Shown here piece after piece: positions 6,273 through 13,041 of a stretch of 64,000 bases of DNA. Both the position numbers and the translations under genes were made by a program. Within the stretch, counting starts at the first letter, position 1. Every line of letters begins with the position of its first letter. The DNA comes from Candidatus Entotheonellaceae bacterium (GTDB lineage: Bacteria; Tectomicrobia; Entotheonellia; Entotheonellales; Entotheonellaceae), in contig OZ250173.1 of assembly GCA_965238075.1 (NCBI GenBank), positions 2,432,001 through 2,496,000 on the forward strand, in the 5' to 3' direction. A model generated the notes under the pieces. It searched no databases. It was not told where the DNA came from and was given only the letters and a program-made list of their open reading frames with translations.

Positions 6273-7978
6273 ACCGCGCCACCATAGCCCGCCGAGGAAA
6301 CCCATCTGCCATGCCCGCCGAGATGCGACAAACGATGCGCCAACGCCTGCTGGCTGAACGCGGCGCGGTGGTGAAGGAAGCGGGCGCCGTGCGCCTGCGC
6401 TTCGCGTTGGCGTATCCGCACACCTACCATATCGGCATGTCAAACCTGGGCCTGCAGACGATCTACCGGCTGGTCAACCAGCGCCCGGACACCCTGTGCG
6501 AGCGTGTCTTTCTGCCTGATCCCGCCGACATCAGCCGCCACGGCTATGCCAACGTACCGTTGGTTTCCGTCGAATCGCAGCGGCCCGTCCGTGATTTTCA
6601 CCTGGTTGGTTTTTCGGTGTCGTACGAGAACGATTACCTGCATCTGCTGCACATGCTGGCGATGCTCCGCATTCCGCTGCTGGCCGCCGAGCGCGATGAG
6701 CGCCACCCACTGATCCTCCTCGGCGGCGCCGTCACCTACCTCAACCCGGAGCCCTTGGCGGATTTCGTCGATCTGATGATCATCGGAGATGGCGAGGACG
6801 CGCTCAACGAGTACCTGGACTTGGCGCACGACACCCTTGGCCAGCCGCGCCGCGCCCACCTGCGCCAGGCGGCGGAAATTCCCGGTGTCTACGTTCCGGC
6901 CCTGCACGACCGGTCCGGGGACGTCAGCCCCATACCGCCGCGCAAAATCGCCGATCTGGCCCAATGGCCGGCGTATTCCACCGTTCTCACCGACGAGACC
7001 GAATTCAGCGGCTCGCTGCTTATCGAGATTACGCGCGGATGCCCCTTCAAGTGCCGATTCTGCACGGTTGGCTACGTCTATCCCAAGTTTCGCCAACTGC
7101 CGGGTGAAATGGTTCTGGACATCGTGACCGCCCAGCAGCGGCGCGACCGCGATAACGGCCTGGCACCGGTCGGAAAGGTGGGTTTGATCAGTTCCGCCAC
7201 CGGTGATTACCGCGCCCTGCCTATGGTGGCGCAGGGGCTGGTGGACATGGGCGTAGGTATCGGCATCTCGTCACTGCGCATGGACCGCATGCCCGACGTG
7301 CTGATTGATTGCATGGTGCGCAGCGGCGTCCGCTCCTGCACCGTCGCCCCCGAGGCGGGTTCCGAGCGTCTGCGGCAGCTCATCCGCAAGGAAATGAGCG
7401 AGGCGGTCATTCTCGAGGGCGTGGAACGCCTGCTGGCCCACGGCGTGCGCGACCTCAAGCTCTATTCCATGATCGGCCTGCCCACCGAAACCGACGATGA
7501 CGTGCAGGAATTGCTGGCCCTGGTCTTGAAGATCTGGGCGCTCATGAAAAGCTACGGCCGTCCCCGCGGCGCCTTGGGAACCCTGACCCTGAGCGTCAAT
7601 CCGTTCATCCCCAAACCCGCCACGCCCCTGCAATGGTGCGCCATGGCCCCCCAGCGCGACGTCAAGGCGAAACTTCACACCCTGCGCCAGGCCCTGCGCC
7701 GTGAATCCTCCATCCGCCTCCAGCACGGCAGTCTCAAAGACGATTACCTCGAAGCCATCCTCGCCCGCGGCGACCGCCAGCTCGGCGCCTTCCTCCTCGA
7801 AACCCATCGTCAACGCGGCAACTGGCCCCGCGCCGCCAAGGTCCTCGGCTTCGACGCCATCGACTGGGTCTGCCAACCGTTGTCTCGTGACGCCATCCTG
7901 CCCTGGGATTTTCTGGAAACCGACCGCCAACGCCAGCGCCTGCACCGTGAGCACGACCGTGCCCTGGCCGTGCCGTAG
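6269..7978 (+). CDS. Radical SAM protein with N-terminal B12-binding-like region (start uncertain, 6269 or 6311)
   Basis: GMSNLG, TRGCPFKCRFC (CxxxCxxC), APEAGSERLR, MIGLPTET and PFIPKPATP. Confidence 0.85.
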   Translation: MNRATIARRGNPSAMPAEMRQTMRQRLLAERGAVVKEAGAVRLRFALAYPHTYHIGMSNLGLQTIYRLVNQRPDTLCERVFLPDPADISRHGYANVPLVSVESQRPVRDFHLVGFSVSYENDYLHLLHMLAMLRIPLLAAERDERHPLILLGGAVTYLNPEPLADFVDLMIIGDGEDALNEYLDLAHDTLGQPRRAHLRQAAEIPGVYVPALHDRSGDVSPIPPRKIADLAQWPAYSTVLTDETEFSGSLLIEITRGCPFKCRFCTVGYVYPKFRQLPGEMVLDIVTAQQRRDRDNGLAPVGKVGLISSATGDYRALPMVAQGLVDMGVGIGISSLRMDRMPDVLIDCMVRSGVRSCTVAPEAGSERLRQLIRKEMSEAVILEGVERLLAHGVRDLKLYSMIGLPTETDDDVQELLALVLKIWALMKSYGRPRGALGTLTLSVNPFIPKPATPLQWCAMAPQRDVKAKLHTLRQALRRESSIRLQHGSLKDDYLEAILARGDRQLGAFLLETHRQRGNWPRAAKVLGFDAIDWVCQPLSRDAILPWDFLETDRQRQRLHREHDRALAVP

Positions 7979-8062
7979 CAGGAGGGAGGCTGTAGCACAA
8001 GCTCCCTTACGTGGGTGCAATAAGGCTGCAAGCTGTCGTCGGACGGCTTCGGAGGGCTAAGG

Positions 8063-8845
8063 ATGAAGCACAGCGTGCTGAAGCCGCCCAAGTCGCTCGC
8101 GGCCACGATCGCATTCCTCACCTGTTTGACGATCGCGCATGTGCTCTCGGCGCCAAGCGCTGTCGGCACCGAATCGCTCCAGGCGGCGCGTAGCGCACAC
8201 GCCGAGGGCCGATTTACCGAAGCCGCCGAACTCGCCGTGGCGGTCGGCACTTCCGAAGGATTTGCGCTGGCAGCCGGGGCGCTGGCGATCCATAGCTACT
8301 ACATCGCCGAAGACGACGCCAAGCCGGCTTTGCTTGAGCGGGCCATGCGGTTGGCACAGGAAGCGGTCCGCCTCGACACCAACAATCCCGAGGCCCATCT
8401 CCAATCAGCACACGCCATGGGCCGATACGCGCAGACCATCGGATTGTTGAAAGCCTTCAGTCAAGGCTATGCGGGAAGGGCGCGAGAGGCAATCGACAAT
8501 GCCCTCCGGCTCGATCCGCACAGGGTGGCCGCGAACCTGATGTTGGCCATGTGGCATAAGGACATCGTCGCCAGCGGATTGGCGGCCAGATTGGCTTATG
8601 GGTCGACCAAAGAGAAGGCCGTCGAACACTACGAGCAGGCCCTTGAGATTGCGGCCGGCGCACCCGATGAGAAGGTGGTGCTCGTTGAATACGCCGAGTG
8701 CCTGTTGCGCTTGTATCGCAGCCGGCACCACAAGCGGGCACGTGAGTTGCTCGTGCGGGCGATCGGAGTACCGTCGAAGGACGCGTTCGAGCGTATTCTC
8801 CATCAAAGGGCCGTCGAACAGTTGGCGGCTCTGGAAGCGCCTTAA
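8063..8845 (+). CDS. Secreted helical-repeat (TPR-like) hypothetical protein
   Basis: N-terminal signal-like hydrophobic stretch and TPR-like segments AVRLDTNNPEAHL and ALRLDPHRVAANL. Confidence 0.65.
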   Translation: MKHSVLKPPKSLAATIAFLTCLTIAHVLSAPSAVGTESLQAARSAHAEGRFTEAAELAVAVGTSEGFALAAGALAIHSYYIAEDDAKPALLERAMRLAQEAVRLDTNNPEAHLQSAHAMGRYAQTIGLLKAFSQGYAGRAREAIDNALRLDPHRVAANLMLAMWHKDIVASGLAARLAYGSTKEKAVEHYEQALEIAAGAPDEKVVLVEYAECLLRLYRSRHHKRARELLVRAIGVPSKDAFERILHQRAVEQLAALEAP

Positions 8846-8919
8846 ATCAGGAGCCTTGGATCGTTCAAACCATGTGTTGCGTTGCTGTCAGTGTTCCATT
8901 AAGTTGCTTTGGCGTCTCG

Positions 8920-9012
8920 CATGAATGCCCGCCGGTCCAGCATAAGATCGCCATCAGGCTCGTAGACGTTTTCGGCAATGACACCGAGACAGTCGCGGAG
9001 GTGACAGCATGA
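8920..9012 (+). pseudogene. Remnant 3' end of a site-specific DNA methyltransferase gene (type III Mod-like C-terminus)
   Basis: Reads HECPPVQHKIAIRLVDVFGNDTETVAEVTA-TGA, resembling the KIAVKVVDIFGNDT tail I recall for such methyltransferases. The stop overlaps the next ATG (ATGA 9009-9012). Confidence 0.55.
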
Positions 9013-9902
9013 AATTTGACCTGCCGAAAAGAATCCGACACAGCAAGGATGGTTTCGAGGTCTTGGCGTGTCTCCATGCTCAGACTGAGCGCTGTTTTAT
9101 GGATGATGTCGAGATTGACATGGCATCAACGGATTGGTTTGACGCAGATATGTGCGCGGTACTTGGGGGCATTCTGTACCGCTTAGGGGGCAGGTCGAAC
9201 CTGAACACTGTGGCTCTCACAAATATCTGCTCAGAGGTAGAAACAATTCTGGCGAGAAACGGCTTTCTCAGTCACTACGGCCGGGAAAAGCTCCCCGACC
9301 GTTGGGGGACAACCATTTCATACAAGCGGTTCGATGTTGAAGACAGCAGCTATTTTGCCCGGTACGTTGAAGACGAGTTTATCCAGCAGCGTGAAATGCG
9401 TGAAATGCTGGACATGTCGCCGGGCCTCCAGAAAAAATTCCACGAGGCCATTTTCGAGATATTCAGCAATGCTGTGTCACATTCCCATACTGAGATGGGG
9501 ATCTTCAGTTGTGGACAATTCTATCCTGCGAGACACCAGCTTAATTTTACGGTGGCGGATATGGGGGTCGGCATGCGCCGCAAGATACAGGACCATTTAG
9601 GGCGTAACCTGTCACCGGAGGAGGCAATCGTCTGGGCAACGGAGCGCAACCACACGACCAGGAAAGGCGGTATTCCCGGGGGTTTGGGGCTGAAGTTGCT
9701 TCGCGAATTCATTGACCGGAATGATGACGGCTGTCTTCAGATCGTATCCGACGCCGGATATTGGCGCCGCGAAAAACACGGCACCTGTACCGAACGATTG
9801 AGTTATCCGTTCCCGGGTACGGTAGTGAATGTGGAGATCAATACTGCAGACCAGAACACCTACGGCCTTTCTTCCGAGGCCACGACCAACGATATTTTTT
9901 GA
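9009..9902 (+). CDS. GHKL/HATPase_c ATP-binding protein (anti-sigma-factor-kinase-like, no H-box)
   Basis: N box EIFSNAVSHS, G1 ADMGVG, G2 GGLGL and G3 FPGTVV. No transmembrane or HisKA segment. Confidence 0.8.
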   Translation: MKFDLPKRIRHSKDGFEVLACLHAQTERCFMDDVEIDMASTDWFDADMCAVLGGILYRLGGRSNLNTVALTNICSEVETILARNGFLSHYGREKLPDRWGTTISYKRFDVEDSSYFARYVEDEFIQQREMREMLDMSPGLQKKFHEAIFEIFSNAVSHSHTEMGIFSCGQFYPARHQLNFTVADMGVGMRRKIQDHLGRNLSPEEAIVWATERNHTTRKGGIPGGLGLKLLREFIDRNDDGCLQIVSDAGYWRREKHGTCTERLSYPFPGTVVNVEINTADQNTYGLSSEATTNDIF

Positions 9903-9913
9903 GATGCATCCCC

Positions 9914-10279
9914 ATGGAAAAGAGCCTTGTGATATCCATATTTCAGGTTGTCGGCAGTCCCTTGTGTGTCGCGTCTGACGATGGGCAGAAGGTATACGAC
10001 CGTCTAGCCGCCGCCTTGCACCAGGGACGATGCGTCTCGCTTTCATTTCGCAACGTCTCCGTGCTGACCTCAGCGTTTCTCAACGCGGCGGTCGGGCAGT
10101 TGTACGGAAAGTTCGACGAGCACCAAATTCGCGAATTATTGCAAGTGGAAGACATGCAGCCTGATGATGTGGCGCTGTTGGAACGCGTCGTAAAGACGGC
10201 TAAACAGTTCTTTCGAGACCCGGAGAGATTCAGCAACGTGGTGAAGGAGGTCCTGGAGGAGGAAGACGATGACGCATGA
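9914..10279 (+). CDS. STAS-like domain protein (DUF4325-like)
   Basis: CVASDDGQKVY...VSLSFRNVSVLTSAFLNAAVGQLY pattern; 121 aa. Confidence 0.75.
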   Translation: MEKSLVISIFQVVGSPLCVASDDGQKVYDRLAAALHQGRCVSLSFRNVSVLTSAFLNAAVGQLYGKFDEHQIRELLQVEDMQPDDVALLERVVKTAKQFFRDPERFSNVVKEVLEEEDDDA

Positions 10280-10769
10280 TGTCTCACATGTCGGGGACTA
10301 TCATTTCACCACCAACGACGCGTTATTTCTGGACGCCAACATCTGGCTATGTATGTATGGCTCAACGAGTGTAGGTAGGAATAACAGAAAAGAAACCTAC
10401 CTCTCAGCGTTTCGTCGCATTCTGGAAGCTAAGAGCCGCATCTATATTAACGTCCTCGTCGTCTCGGAGATTATCAACGTCTGGGCCAGAATCTCTTACC
10501 GGGATTGGGAATATTGGTCGCCTCAAAATTTCAAGGCATATCGTAGCAGTGATGCTTTCAAATCCGTTGCTTCGGATATTGCCGCCGACATCAAACGGAT
10601 CCTGAGTTATTGTTCACGAATCGAAAGCGGCTTTGAAACGGCAGAAATAGATACCTTGATTGACGAATACAAGGAAACTGGTTCCGACTTCAATGATCAA
10701 ATCATCCGAGAGTTGTGTAAAAGTAGAGACTTGAGGCTGATAACGGACGATGGTGACTTCTATGGTTAG
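10269..10769 (+). CDS. PIN-domain ribonuclease; possibly truncated by a premature TAG (frame continues to TGA 10809-10811)
   Basis: Acidic PIN residues in FLDANIW, VVSEIIN, DFNDQII and ITDDGDF. Overlaps the STAS gene. Confidence 0.8.
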   Translation: MTHDVSHVGDYHFTTNDALFLDANIWLCMYGSTSVGRNNRKETYLSAFRRILEAKSRIYINVLVVSEIINVWARISYRDWEYWSPQNFKAYRSSDAFKSVASDIAADIKRILSYCSRIESGFETAEIDTLIDEYKETGSDFNDQIIRELCKSRDLRLITDDGDFYG

Positions 10770-10990
10770 GGTATATCCATCTTAACGGCCAACAGGCGTT
10801 TATTGCGCTGATCTCAAGGTATTCCTCCTTCGCCTTCCTTTTCTTCTCCACACGCGACCTTGCCCCGCGCTTCGCGAGCTTCCAACTGCTGGCGCCTCGG
10901 CATTGCCCACCACCGCACGGTTGCTTTGTTTTGAACGACTAGGGTAGTATGTAGCGCCGAATTGATAACCCATGCGAGGAGGGCTCAGGG

Positions 10991-12121
10991 GTGGCGGATA
11001 ACGTTTTTCAGGCGGCGATTGACATACTTGAAAGAGGCGAGCAGGCGGCGCTGTCGACGATCATCTCGTCGAAGGGGTCGTTGCCGATGAGCGAAAAGAG
11101 CAAAATGCTGGTGACGCCGGAAGGGAAAATTATCGGCACGGTCGGCGGCGGCTGTCTGGAAGCGGATGTGTGGACGGAAGCCCGCGAAGTGATGGAGGCG
11201 GGCAAGAGCCGCATCCAGAAATTCATCCTGACGGAGAAATACGCCGGCGAGAGCGGCCTCAATTGCGGCGGCGTGGTGGAAATCCTGACGGAGCCGTTGC
11301 CAGAGCGCGGCCAGGACGTGTTCCGCACCATTCTCGACCTCAAGGAATCCGGGCACCGCGGCACGTTGGCGACGATTCTCACCGACCACCCCGATTTCCC
11401 GGAGGGACGCCGCAAGCTCCTGCTCACCGACGATGGCAGCACGGTTGGTTCCCTGGGCAACGCTGACCTCGAAAGCTTCGTGGTGCAGCGCGGCCAGGAT
11501 GTGTTGCGGGGCGAAAACTTCGCCATCGAGTCCTACGCCGCCGCTTCCGGCGACACCCTGCAGATTTTTCTGGAACCCGTTCTCCCCACCCCGACCGTGT
11601 GGGTATTCGGCGGTGGACACGTGTCGTTCTTCCTGGTACGCGCCGCCAAGCTGGCCGGTTTCAGGGCCAAGGTGATTGATGACCGCCCGGCCTTCGCCAA
11701 CAAGGAGCGCTTCCCGGAAGCCGACGCCACGATCGTCATGGAATTCGACAAGGTCCGCGAGGCGTTCGATTTTGGCCACGACGATTACGTGGTCCTCGTG
11801 ACGCGCGGCCACCAGCACGACCAGCATATTCTGGAGCAGATTTACGACTGCGACGCCCGCTACCTCGGCATGATCGGCAGCAAGAGCAAGATCGCCAAAA
11901 TGTGGCAGCGCTTGGAGGCCAAGGGCATCGACAGTGGCTATCTCGACCGCGTACACGCACCGGTCGGCCTGAACATCGGCGCCGATTCGCCGGAGGAAAT
12001 CTGCATCAGCGTCATGGCCGAGATCATCCGCGAGCGGCGTATCGGCAAGGTGCAGGCTACCCGCCACAAACGCAGCCATGACGAGCGCCGCGAGGCCGTT
12101 GCGGAGGCTGCGGCGTCGTAG
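10991..12121 (+). CDS. XdhC/CoxI family molybdenum-cofactor accessory protein
   Basis: [39 protein letters not shown] and [16 protein letters not shown]. Confidence 0.9.
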
Positions 12122-12138
12122 ACCATCGGGAGACATCC

Positions 12139-13041
12139 GTGCAATTGGTCCAGCTCGAAACCCGCCCGCAACCGCCGAAGCCCGCCTGGTTGCGCGTCAA
12201 ACTACCCACCGGCAAGACGTATTCGGACGTCAAAAGCCTGGTTCGCCAACACCGCCTGCACACCGTGTGCGAGGAGGCCATGTGCCCCAACATCGGCGAG
12301 TGCTGGGAGCAGAGAAGCGCGACCCTTATGTTGCTCGGCGATACCTGCACCCGCAGTTGCGGTTTTTGCGCCGTGCGCACGGGGCGGCCCGGCAGCGTGG
12401 ACGAGCAGGAACCGGAGCGCGTGGTCGAGACGATTGCCACGCTGGGGCTGCGATATGCGGTGGTGACGTCGGTGAACCGGGACGATTTGGCCGACGGCGG
12501 CAGCCACATTTTCGCGGCGGTCATTCGAGGCCTTCGGCAGCGGGTGCCGGGGTGCCGTATCGAGGTGCTGATTCCCGATTTCAAGGGCAATTGGGAGGCT
12601 TTGACCGAGGTGGTGGAAGCCGGTCCCGACGTCTTGAATCACAATATAGAAAGCATTGCCCGACTGTACGACACGGTAAGGCCGCAAGCCAAATACGAGC
12701 GGTCTCTGGAGCTTCTGCGGCGGGTCAAGGACATCGATGCCGCCATGCGCACCAAATCCGGCCTCATGGTCGGCCTCGGGGAGGAACCCGAGGAGATCGT
12801 CGACACGATGGGAGATTTACGGGACGCCTATTGCGATCTGCTGACCATCGGCCAGTACCTGCGTCCGTCGCTACAGCATCTGCCGGTACAGCGGTTCTAC
12901 CACCCCGACGAGTTTGTCGAGCTCAAACGCCAGGGCGAGGCGCTGGGCTTCGCGCACGTTGAGTCCGGTCCACTGGTGCGCAGTTCTTACCATGCATCGA
13001 ATCAGGAAGCGGCGGCTCAGACGCTGCATGTGACGGGATAA
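12139..13041 (+). CDS. lipA: Lipoyl synthase
   Basis: [26 protein letters not shown] and GPLVRSSY. Confidence 0.95.

Follow-up and report, generated by a model that had tools for sequence, protein, structure and literature searches.

The closest described relative of the locus considered here is vapKSC, a kinase-controlled toxin-antitoxin (TA) and anti-phage system in which a CapK-like kinase combining STAS and GHKL domains (VapK) is encoded together with a STAS protein bearing a short C-terminal region (VapS) and a VapC-like PIN protein (VapC; Chambers et al., EMBO J 2026, PMC13373217). In the system from Escherichia sp. E4736, VapC is toxic whereas its D28A variant is not, and VapS neutralizes VapC whereas a C-terminally deleted VapS and the phosphomimetic S48E variant do not, the latter substitution also abolishing co-purification with VapC (PMC13373217). 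A VapS2VapC2 crystal structure is available at 3.4 Å (PDB 9z7o), and against phage Bas42 the operon protects by about 2 logs, an effect abolished by each of D28A, S48A and VapK F54A (PMC13373217). Phosphorylation by VapK was not assayed in Escherichia because the protein is insoluble, and activation by single-stranded DNA (ssDNA) was shown in vitro for the related CapK only (PMC13373217). In the published model, VapC, a presumed RNA-cutting PIN nuclease, would be held inactive in a 2:2 complex with VapS, whose STAS domain would sit on VapC with its C-terminal helix by the active site, until VapK, a GHKL Ser/Thr kinase resembling SpoIIAB and presumably activated by ssDNA from DNA damage or phage attack, phosphorylates a conserved VapS serine, which would break the VapS-VapC interface and free the nuclease.

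Here we describe a cassette of this kind in a 64,000-nucleotide stretch from the genome of a Candidatus Entotheonellaceae bacterium (assembly GCA_965238075.1, contig OZ250173.1, positions 2,432,001 to 2,496,000 of the forward strand; hereafter “the window”, to which all coordinates refer). Its three genes belong to the already named and published vapKSC system, and hence do not define a new one, while this particular copy is very probably a relic, carried as cargo of a Type III restriction-modification (R-M) operon and now left with a broken toxin. The cassette would have arrived within an operon of the order mod-vapK-vapS-vapC-res, after which mod and res would have been deleted down to stubs, and a C-to-T change would have turned vapC codon 167 into TAG. 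As read from its open frames, the copy has thus lost its restriction genes and the end of its toxin, with kinase and antitoxin still whole. The three genes are laid out as follows:

9009-9902, + strand: vapK, stand-alone GHKL ATPase of 297 amino acids (aa), from Pfam HATPase_c and an alignment of homologues
9914-10279, + strand: vapS, STAS-like DUF4325 antitoxin of 121 aa, from Pfam and a match to PDB 9z7o_A
10269-10769, + strand: vapC, PIN toxin gene closed early, 166 aa, from Pfam and a profile match to 9z7o_C

An earlier account of this DNA drawn from its letters (the sequence-only reading) had described three tightly coupled genes, with an 11-bp gap followed by an overlap, in DNA AT-richer than its flanks. 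This layout was confirmed: vapK and vapS are separated by 11 bp (9903-9913), vapS and vapC overlap by 11 bp (10269-10279), and GC content is 0.49-0.53 across 9001-11000 vs. 0.59-0.66 in both flanks. The vapS start is the ATG at 9914, inside a larger open reading frame (ORF) spanning 9761-10279, and the window's own genome holds a single copy of the cassette. The same reading had proposed that a kinase/STAS switch gates a PIN RNase as a three-component TA or anti-phage system, a mechanism which our results support and which, as far as the vapKSC paper sets it out, is the one published in 2026; that it could be reached from raw sequence is a useful check on this type of scan. It had also not recognized the cassette as a named system and had held that a match to a described system would count against its proposal, and vapKSC is such a match.

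The identification is carried first by VapS. Its sole Pfam match above the curated cut-off is DUF4325 (“STAS-like”, E 5.6e-16), and the TSAF motif reported for a small STAS-like protein in the sequence-only reading is indeed found, at T52-S53-A54-F55, with T52 invariant and S53 at least 90% conserved among 72 sequences. As a single sequence, VapS matches PDB 9z7o_A, “Escherichia VapS”, at E 1.8e-16, and a profile of the 72 clade sequences does so at E 8.8e-22 over residues 3-118. S53 aligns with Escherichia VapS S48 (i.e., chain residue 66 minus an inferred 18-residue tag, the chain having 134 residues vs. 116 in the native protein), and is on this alignment a candidate phospho-acceptor. The VapS C-terminus is a helix region. 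For VapC, Pfam returned PIN at E 2.5e-8, and the acidic residues D22, E67, D140, D143, D161 and D163 are present and fall in invariant or nearly invariant columns of an alignment of 74 homologues, in keeping with the catalytic residues attributed to this protein earlier. A profile of 74 clade VapC sequences searched against PDB at E up to 1 matched 9z7o_C only, at 7.2e-12 over positions 4-177/178, with D22 aligned to the Escherichia catalytic D28. A full-length clade VapC, that of homologue L009, was modeled with a predicted local distance difference test score (pLDDT) of 93, and Foldseek matched the VapC fold to Shigella, Rickettsia and M. tuberculosis VapC toxins (template modeling (TM) score on target 0.65-0.72) in a comparison that covered classical VapCs only, not 9z7o.

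Structure prediction of the complex, which the sequence-only reading had suggested as a check, gave a score of 0.80 for the window VapC with the window VapS, the best of three controls scoring 0.00; this score is reached by 116 of 157 solved complexes and by 2 of 215 mismatched pairs. Separate runs share at least 89% of contacts, with partner pLDDT of at least 89. The predicted contacts join VapS 52-55 with VapC 28-34 and VapS 106-117 with VapC 67-75, as in the published crystal structure so far as the paper describes it, so that the TSAF residues would lie at the center of the interface and the VapS C-terminus beside VapC E67-R74, the whole predicted VapS interface on VapC comprising residues 27-110. 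Because a like complex has already been solved, this prediction indicates likeness to it, and is no proof that this copy binds.

The kinase is likewise as first described, i.e., a stand-alone GHKL ATPase without an H-box: Pfam HATPase_c was matched at E 3.7e-6 (27.8 bits, cut-off 26.4) with no HisKA match, and the N-box and G-boxes are invariant columns in an alignment with 25 homologues. Among 1936 candidates, 1338 were VapK relatives at E <=0.001, and the best 120 listed are 61-68% identical to the window VapK over the full length (287-297 aa), except for P0001 (99%). The AlphaFold model (pLDDT 74, predicted TM score 0.79) shows, besides the GHKL domain, an N-terminal region (residues 2-125) in which strand and helix alternate four times as in a STAS fold, and which would be STAS-like on that strand-helix topology only. 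The best solved folds found by Foldseek include SpoIIAB (1til, 1l0o and 1tid, TM score on target 0.60-0.66), and the family profile searched against PDB retrieved the ETR1 kinase domain only, at 0.0016. The invariant W43 and the nearly invariant F44 are candidates for the proposed aromatic of the ssDNA site (F54 in Escherichia VapK). For the window copy, we infer that VapK would phosphorylate VapS, at S53, with ssDNA as the trigger. Among the entries of Dataset EV3 in the vapKSC paper are N. nitrosa Nm90, Ca. Nitrotoga AM1P, DeMMO2_3 and Thiosymbion, and kinases recovered under those names (L003 from Nm90, 65%; P0097 from AM1P, 63%; L013 from DeMMO2_3; and L040, from a Thiosymbion oneisti genome that is a different isolate from the one in the dataset) are 62-66% identical to the window VapK, the range for the first three being 63-66%.

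A search of one genome per prokaryote species yielded 218 stretches with a VapK relative, of which the best 80 were kept. These span many phyla (record titles include Nitrosomonas, Nitrospira, Binatia, Caldilineaceae, Poribacteria, Latescibacterota and Thermodesulfobacteriota). By local tblastn, vapS adjoins vapK in 80/80 loci and vapC does so in 79/80, the sole locus without vapC (L035) running off its contig, and the order K-S-C is kept in 78/80. The linkage of the trio, which the sequence-only reading had wished to see verified, is thus far beyond chance. The two other loci (L041:467-2463 and L071:4880-6876) show a permuted order, vapS-vapC-vapK, with a gap of ~200 bp before vapK.

Overall, the window cassette resembles VapKSC in gene order, domain make-up, VapS and VapC homology, and the aligned phospho-acceptor serine and catalytic aspartate. 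It differs in that its clade is distant from the Escherichia prototype (see the single-sequence E-values for VapS above and for VapC below), that its vapC is not full-length, which bears on function and not on family, and that it lies between Type III mod and res stubs. CapK/CapS is comparable in pairing a STAS-bearing GHKL kinase with a STAS substrate phosphorylated on a conserved serine, but CapK carries an N-terminal helix-turn-helix (HTH) domain and CapS a winged HTH that represses a downstream operon (PMC13373217), whereas the window trio is without a DNA-binding domain in Pfam and its output would be nuclease release. With SpoIIAB-SpoIIAA and RsbW-RsbV the cassette shares the kinase fold and the logic of phosphorylating a STAS partner, but VapS would inhibit an enzyme whereas the partner-switch STAS protein antagonizes an anti-sigma factor, and neither a sigma factor nor a PP2C phosphatase was found among the genes flanking the cassette. 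Finally, type II VapBC modules, including the PIN.4 group of Matelska et al. (2017; PMC5499597), share the VapC-like PIN fold; VapS, however, has no ribbon-helix-helix, AbrB or HTH DNA-binding domain, it leaves the active-site Mg2+ in place (PMC13373217), and VapC would be released by phosphorylation rather than by proteolysis of the antitoxin. Two PIN systems from DefensePredictor, DS-3 and DS-5, were considered as matches and rejected for their different architectures. In the literature, “vapKSC” was found in the Chambers paper and its bioRxiv preprint only, searches on STAS/PIN/GHKL defense and on STAS-like TA kinases returned unrelated papers only, and in NCBIfam none of VapK, VapS and VapC had a usable match.

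The state of the toxin gene sets this copy apart. The sequence-only reading had placed the end of the cassette at 10811, but that position is reached only through an in-frame TAG, and the open frame ends at 10769:

10767-10769, + strand: premature TAG stop in vapC at codon 167, from homologues and run contigs
10770-10811, + strand: one-time 3' end of vapC (13 codons plus the family TGA stop), now untranslated

The 166-aa product compares with about 176-182 aa in the family, the relatives extending 13-14 codons beyond the window TAG. The residue at this position is Gln in 44 of 78 aligned homologues and a stop in none (0/78); as Gln is the commonest residue there, CAG-to-TAG is the likeliest event. 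The lost tail encodes G-I-x-I-L-T-A-N-x-R-L-L, which in the full-length L009 model makes up the final beta-strand of the PIN sheet plus a short C-terminal helix, and its T-A-N columns are at least 90% conserved in the clade and recognizable in Escherichia VapC. Since the TAG removes the last core strand and this helix, the truncated VapC is probably inactive in this strain. We also weighed a non-standard reading of TAG but rejected it, as TAG ends other ORFs of the window (8 of its 30 long non-overlapping ORFs, i.e., an ordinary stop in this genome) and CAG alleles exist.

The locus is covered by contigs from four public runs (X5, X7, X11 and X17), no two of them from one study. Base 10767 is T in X5 (word depth 49.5) and X7 (14.3), and C, giving CAG, in X11 and X17; because contigs from other studies carry both T and C, the TAG allele is real and polymorphic. 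The X5 contigs are identical to the window and may share their source with the assembly, while X7 has 7 further differences from the window. In addition, an extra C after 10018, just after vapS codon 35, is carried by the sole X7 contig there, which also has the TAG, and by a minor X11 contig. A broken vapS in X7 supports a harmless toxin, as a cell should tolerate a broken antitoxin only then, and on this contig sequence the X7 lineage appears to have gone on to break the antitoxin after the toxin. The insertion at 10018 is ringed by several short alternative contigs, which suggests a polymorphic site in natural populations.

Similar decay is seen in other copies: vapC has a nonsense codon in L007, only its last part is kept in L022, and it is split in L037 and L075, the latter with a further stop in vapK. 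Together with G003, a heavily decayed locus of the same genus described below, the alleles form a natural knock-out series (intact, toxin-nonsense, toxin-nonsense with antitoxin frameshift, heavily decayed), and the order of decay matches the expectation for a TA module and makes the series testable for toxicity.

The surroundings of the cassette point to its origin. Here the sequence-only reading, correct as to the genes, had missed not only the premature vapC stop but also remnants of a Type III R-M system on either side:

8846-10904, + strand: inserted block of ~2.06 kb with low GC, not at this site in the same-genus genome G005
8899-9012, + strand: 3' remnant of mod (Type III methyltransferase), last 35-38 codons
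10812-10880, + strand: 5' remnant of res, degenerate, start lost (AAG vs. ATG), right limit approximate

In G005, window positions 7805-8845 and 10905-12200 are matched at 93-95% identity only 40 bp apart, and as these flanks nearly adjoin, 8846-10904 is inserted DNA, with the gene of a TPR protein on one side and an xdhC-like gene on the other. The mod stub is 58-60% identical to the Mod C-termini of two genomes of the genus, G001 and G003 (tblastn, E 1.5e-11 and 2e-10), whose mod ORFs are recognized by the PADLOC model MTase_III. The stub ends in a TGA (9010-9012) that overlaps the vapK ATG (9009-9011), and the last ~90 bp of mod, which include a GGAGGTG ribosome-binding motif before the start codon, are kept even in other stub loci. 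At the other end, the blastn match of window 9807-10870 to G003 continues ~54 bp into the res ORF, with ~60 bp of res-like sequence in the window. Intact mod and res genes are not present at the window locus, where both were found as stubs only.

Genomes of the genus differ in what they carry at the intergenic site before the xdhC-like gene: in G005 the site is empty, and G004 is also without the TPR gene. In G001 the site is filled by a 12-kb defense island that comprises a NucC-like gene together with a Type III R-M system, between whose mod and res lie an AAA_15/21 ATPase gene and a small one, and in G003 it is occupied by res, by vapC and vapS that are both frameshifted, by a vapK reduced to its last 46 codons and by a split mod.

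Across the 80 related loci, the same arrangement recurs as follows:

Mod C-terminus 9 bp or less from the vapK start: 40/80 loci
Any trace of this Mod family: 46/80 loci
Full-length Mod: 22/80 loci
Full Mod with full Res downstream: 13/80 loci
Res start 10 bp or less after vapC: 20/80 loci
Res upstream of mod instead: 7/80 loci

About nine loci with ample flanking sequence (L009, L017, L021, L030, L033, L040, L045, L064 and L067) have stub-only flanks as in the window, and the different lengths of their stubs suggest separate deletions. The term “type III” does not occur in the main text of the vapKSC paper (PMC13373217), and Dataset EV3 contains no “RM_type_III” entry next to 32 other “RM_type” and 20 “DMS_other” occurrences. 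A literature search on Type III R-M with PIN or TA genes likewise retrieved no description of such an embedding. That vapKSC in this clade occupies the slot between mod and res of a Type III operon is thus the only possibly new element here, the gene order itself being solid.

Several results weigh against reading this copy as a vapKSC relic of Type III operon cargo. As to the family, neither Pfam nor whole-chain Foldseek gave a STAS match for the VapK N-terminal domain, VapK matched no PDB sequence at E up to 1, and the window VapC by itself matches 9z7o_C, “Escherichia VapC”, weakly (E 0.014), so that vapC membership relies on the profile and the context. PADLOC, put forward earlier as a check, has in v2.0.0 no model for VapK, VapS or VapC. 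As to the origin, 34 of the 80 loci are without a trace of this Mod family, some of them between housekeeping genes and others by Type I or Type ISP restriction genes, Shedu, AbiEii or DUF4238, and a Type III embedding is therefore common in the clade but not universal. A promoter scan found no sigma-70-like site 5' of vapK, the overall number of sites being not above that in shuffled sequence, and although contigs of the RNA library X11 cover nearly the whole cassette, this does not prove transcription, as such libraries may hold DNA and the contigs extend into the flanks. If the kinase and the STAS protein were instead a classical SpoIIAB/SpoIIAA or RsbW/RsbV module controlling a sigma factor or another regulator, the PIN gene would be an unrelated neighbor. 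The SpoIIAB-like fold of the kinase and the conserved Ser/Thr of its STAS-like partner fit such a module, but the regulators it would need are missing alongside, vapC accompanies the pair almost without exception and overlaps vapS in the window, and a homologous STAS protein has been crystallized bound to a PIN protein (PDB 9z7o), so that we give this explanation next to no credence.

The remaining alternatives concern the stop codon. That the TAG is an assembly or sequencing error, the gene being intact in the organism, could be argued from its being a single base off the family's commonest codon and from the CAG read in two of the four runs; the distribution of T and C over the runs is however the pattern of a segregating allele, and X7 reads T in a sequence distinct from the window, even if X5 may be no independent witness, which makes such an error very improbable. 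A cassette that still works, either because the 166-aa VapC keeps activity or because read-through of the TAG gives some full-length protein, is a more serious proposal. All of the conserved acidic residues precede the stop, so residual activity is possible; the predicted VapS interface is wholly retained; vapK and vapS are open in the window with their conserved motifs intact; and the TAG allele persists in contigs of two further studies, in X5 with otherwise whole genes. Against this, the lost segment includes the last strand of the central sheet and the T-A-N motif kept as far as Escherichia VapC, X7 pairs the TAG with a +1 insertion in vapS, the same decay recurs in L007, L022, L037, L075 and G003, and TAG is ordinarily a stop in this genome. 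We consider a working cassette unlikely on balance, and retain the relic with a broken toxin as the preferred reading.

What the restriction genes and the TA genes might do together is suggested by the slot they share. A latent RNase toxin inside an R-M locus has a parallel in the PrrC anticodon nuclease, which acts as a second line of defense within the EcoprrI Type I locus; it differs from VapKSC in nuclease family, R-M type and trigger, and VapKSC is not known to be physically linked to the Type III enzyme. We assembled a Res-anchored sample of metagenome contigs (L095-L174, the best 80 of 579 relatives), in which a Mod C-terminus lies upstream of Res in 69 of 80; being ranked by likeness to one Res protein, this sample gives no overall frequency. 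The mod-res gap was distributed as follows:

25 bp or less: 34/69 loci
26-499 bp: 3/69 loci
500-1199 bp: 18/69 loci
1200-2099 bp: 9/69 loci
2100 bp or more: 5/69 loci

The gap thus looks like a cargo slot, with 0.5-3.8 kb of inserted genes in 32 of the 69 loci, and also in L091:5387-12215 (G001) and L032. Of the 56 ORFs in the larger gaps, 50 were scanned, and the cargo comprised:

KilA-N proteins: 9 loci
MNT-HepT pairs: 4 loci
Schlafen AlbA_2 with HATPase_c_4 proteins: 4 loci
DUF488: 4 loci
AAA_15/21 ATPases, with a small partner: 2 loci
M78 peptidase with DUF4411: 2 loci
Single cases: AAA with subtilase, a Zeta-toxin fragment, PDDEXK_3, Bro-N and DUF3800

In this sample vapKSC was absent from all 69 resolvable gaps, while contig L095 begins inside vapC directly 5' of res. 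It is tempting to speculate that vapKSC is one of many interchangeable TA or abortive-infection cargoes of the mod-res slot, functionally paired with restriction, a proposal we offer tentatively and hold to be possible rather than probable. The overlap of the vapK start with the mod stop suggests co-transcription and translational coupling. Under this proposal, ssDNA that forms as an invader is restricted, or on failure of restriction, would switch VapK on and yield a two-layer defense, and the addictive TA part would then outlive the restriction genes, as in the window and the loci with stub-only flanks. That mod so often ends at the vapK start (half of the loci) fits an idea put forward in the vapKSC paper, namely that ssDNA-sensing kinases coordinate restriction with a later abortive defense (PMC13373217). 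Natural mod-vapKSC-res operons, among them the intact ones of L006, L008 and L003, would be a setting for testing this coordination, and the contents of the slot could serve as a list of candidate defense genes.

Some further observations concern the neighborhood and the kinase gene. The genes around the cassette encode a TPR protein, an XdhC-like protein, a radical-SAM protein and lipoyl synthase. Three of the loci without Mod (L015:5636-6001, L074:5612-6001 and L077:5609-6001) carry an ORF (122-131 aa, without a Pfam match) that ends exactly at the vapK start, and which may be the tail of another upstream family coupled to vapK. Within the window vapK itself, a short repeat was found:

9390-9407, + strand: 9-bp tandem duplication in vapK, CGTGAAATG twice, read REM-REM

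This duplication lengthens the inter-domain linker by three residues and is in none of the 25 aligned homologues, and the window VapK carries three further small in-frame insertions that are likewise its own in that alignment.

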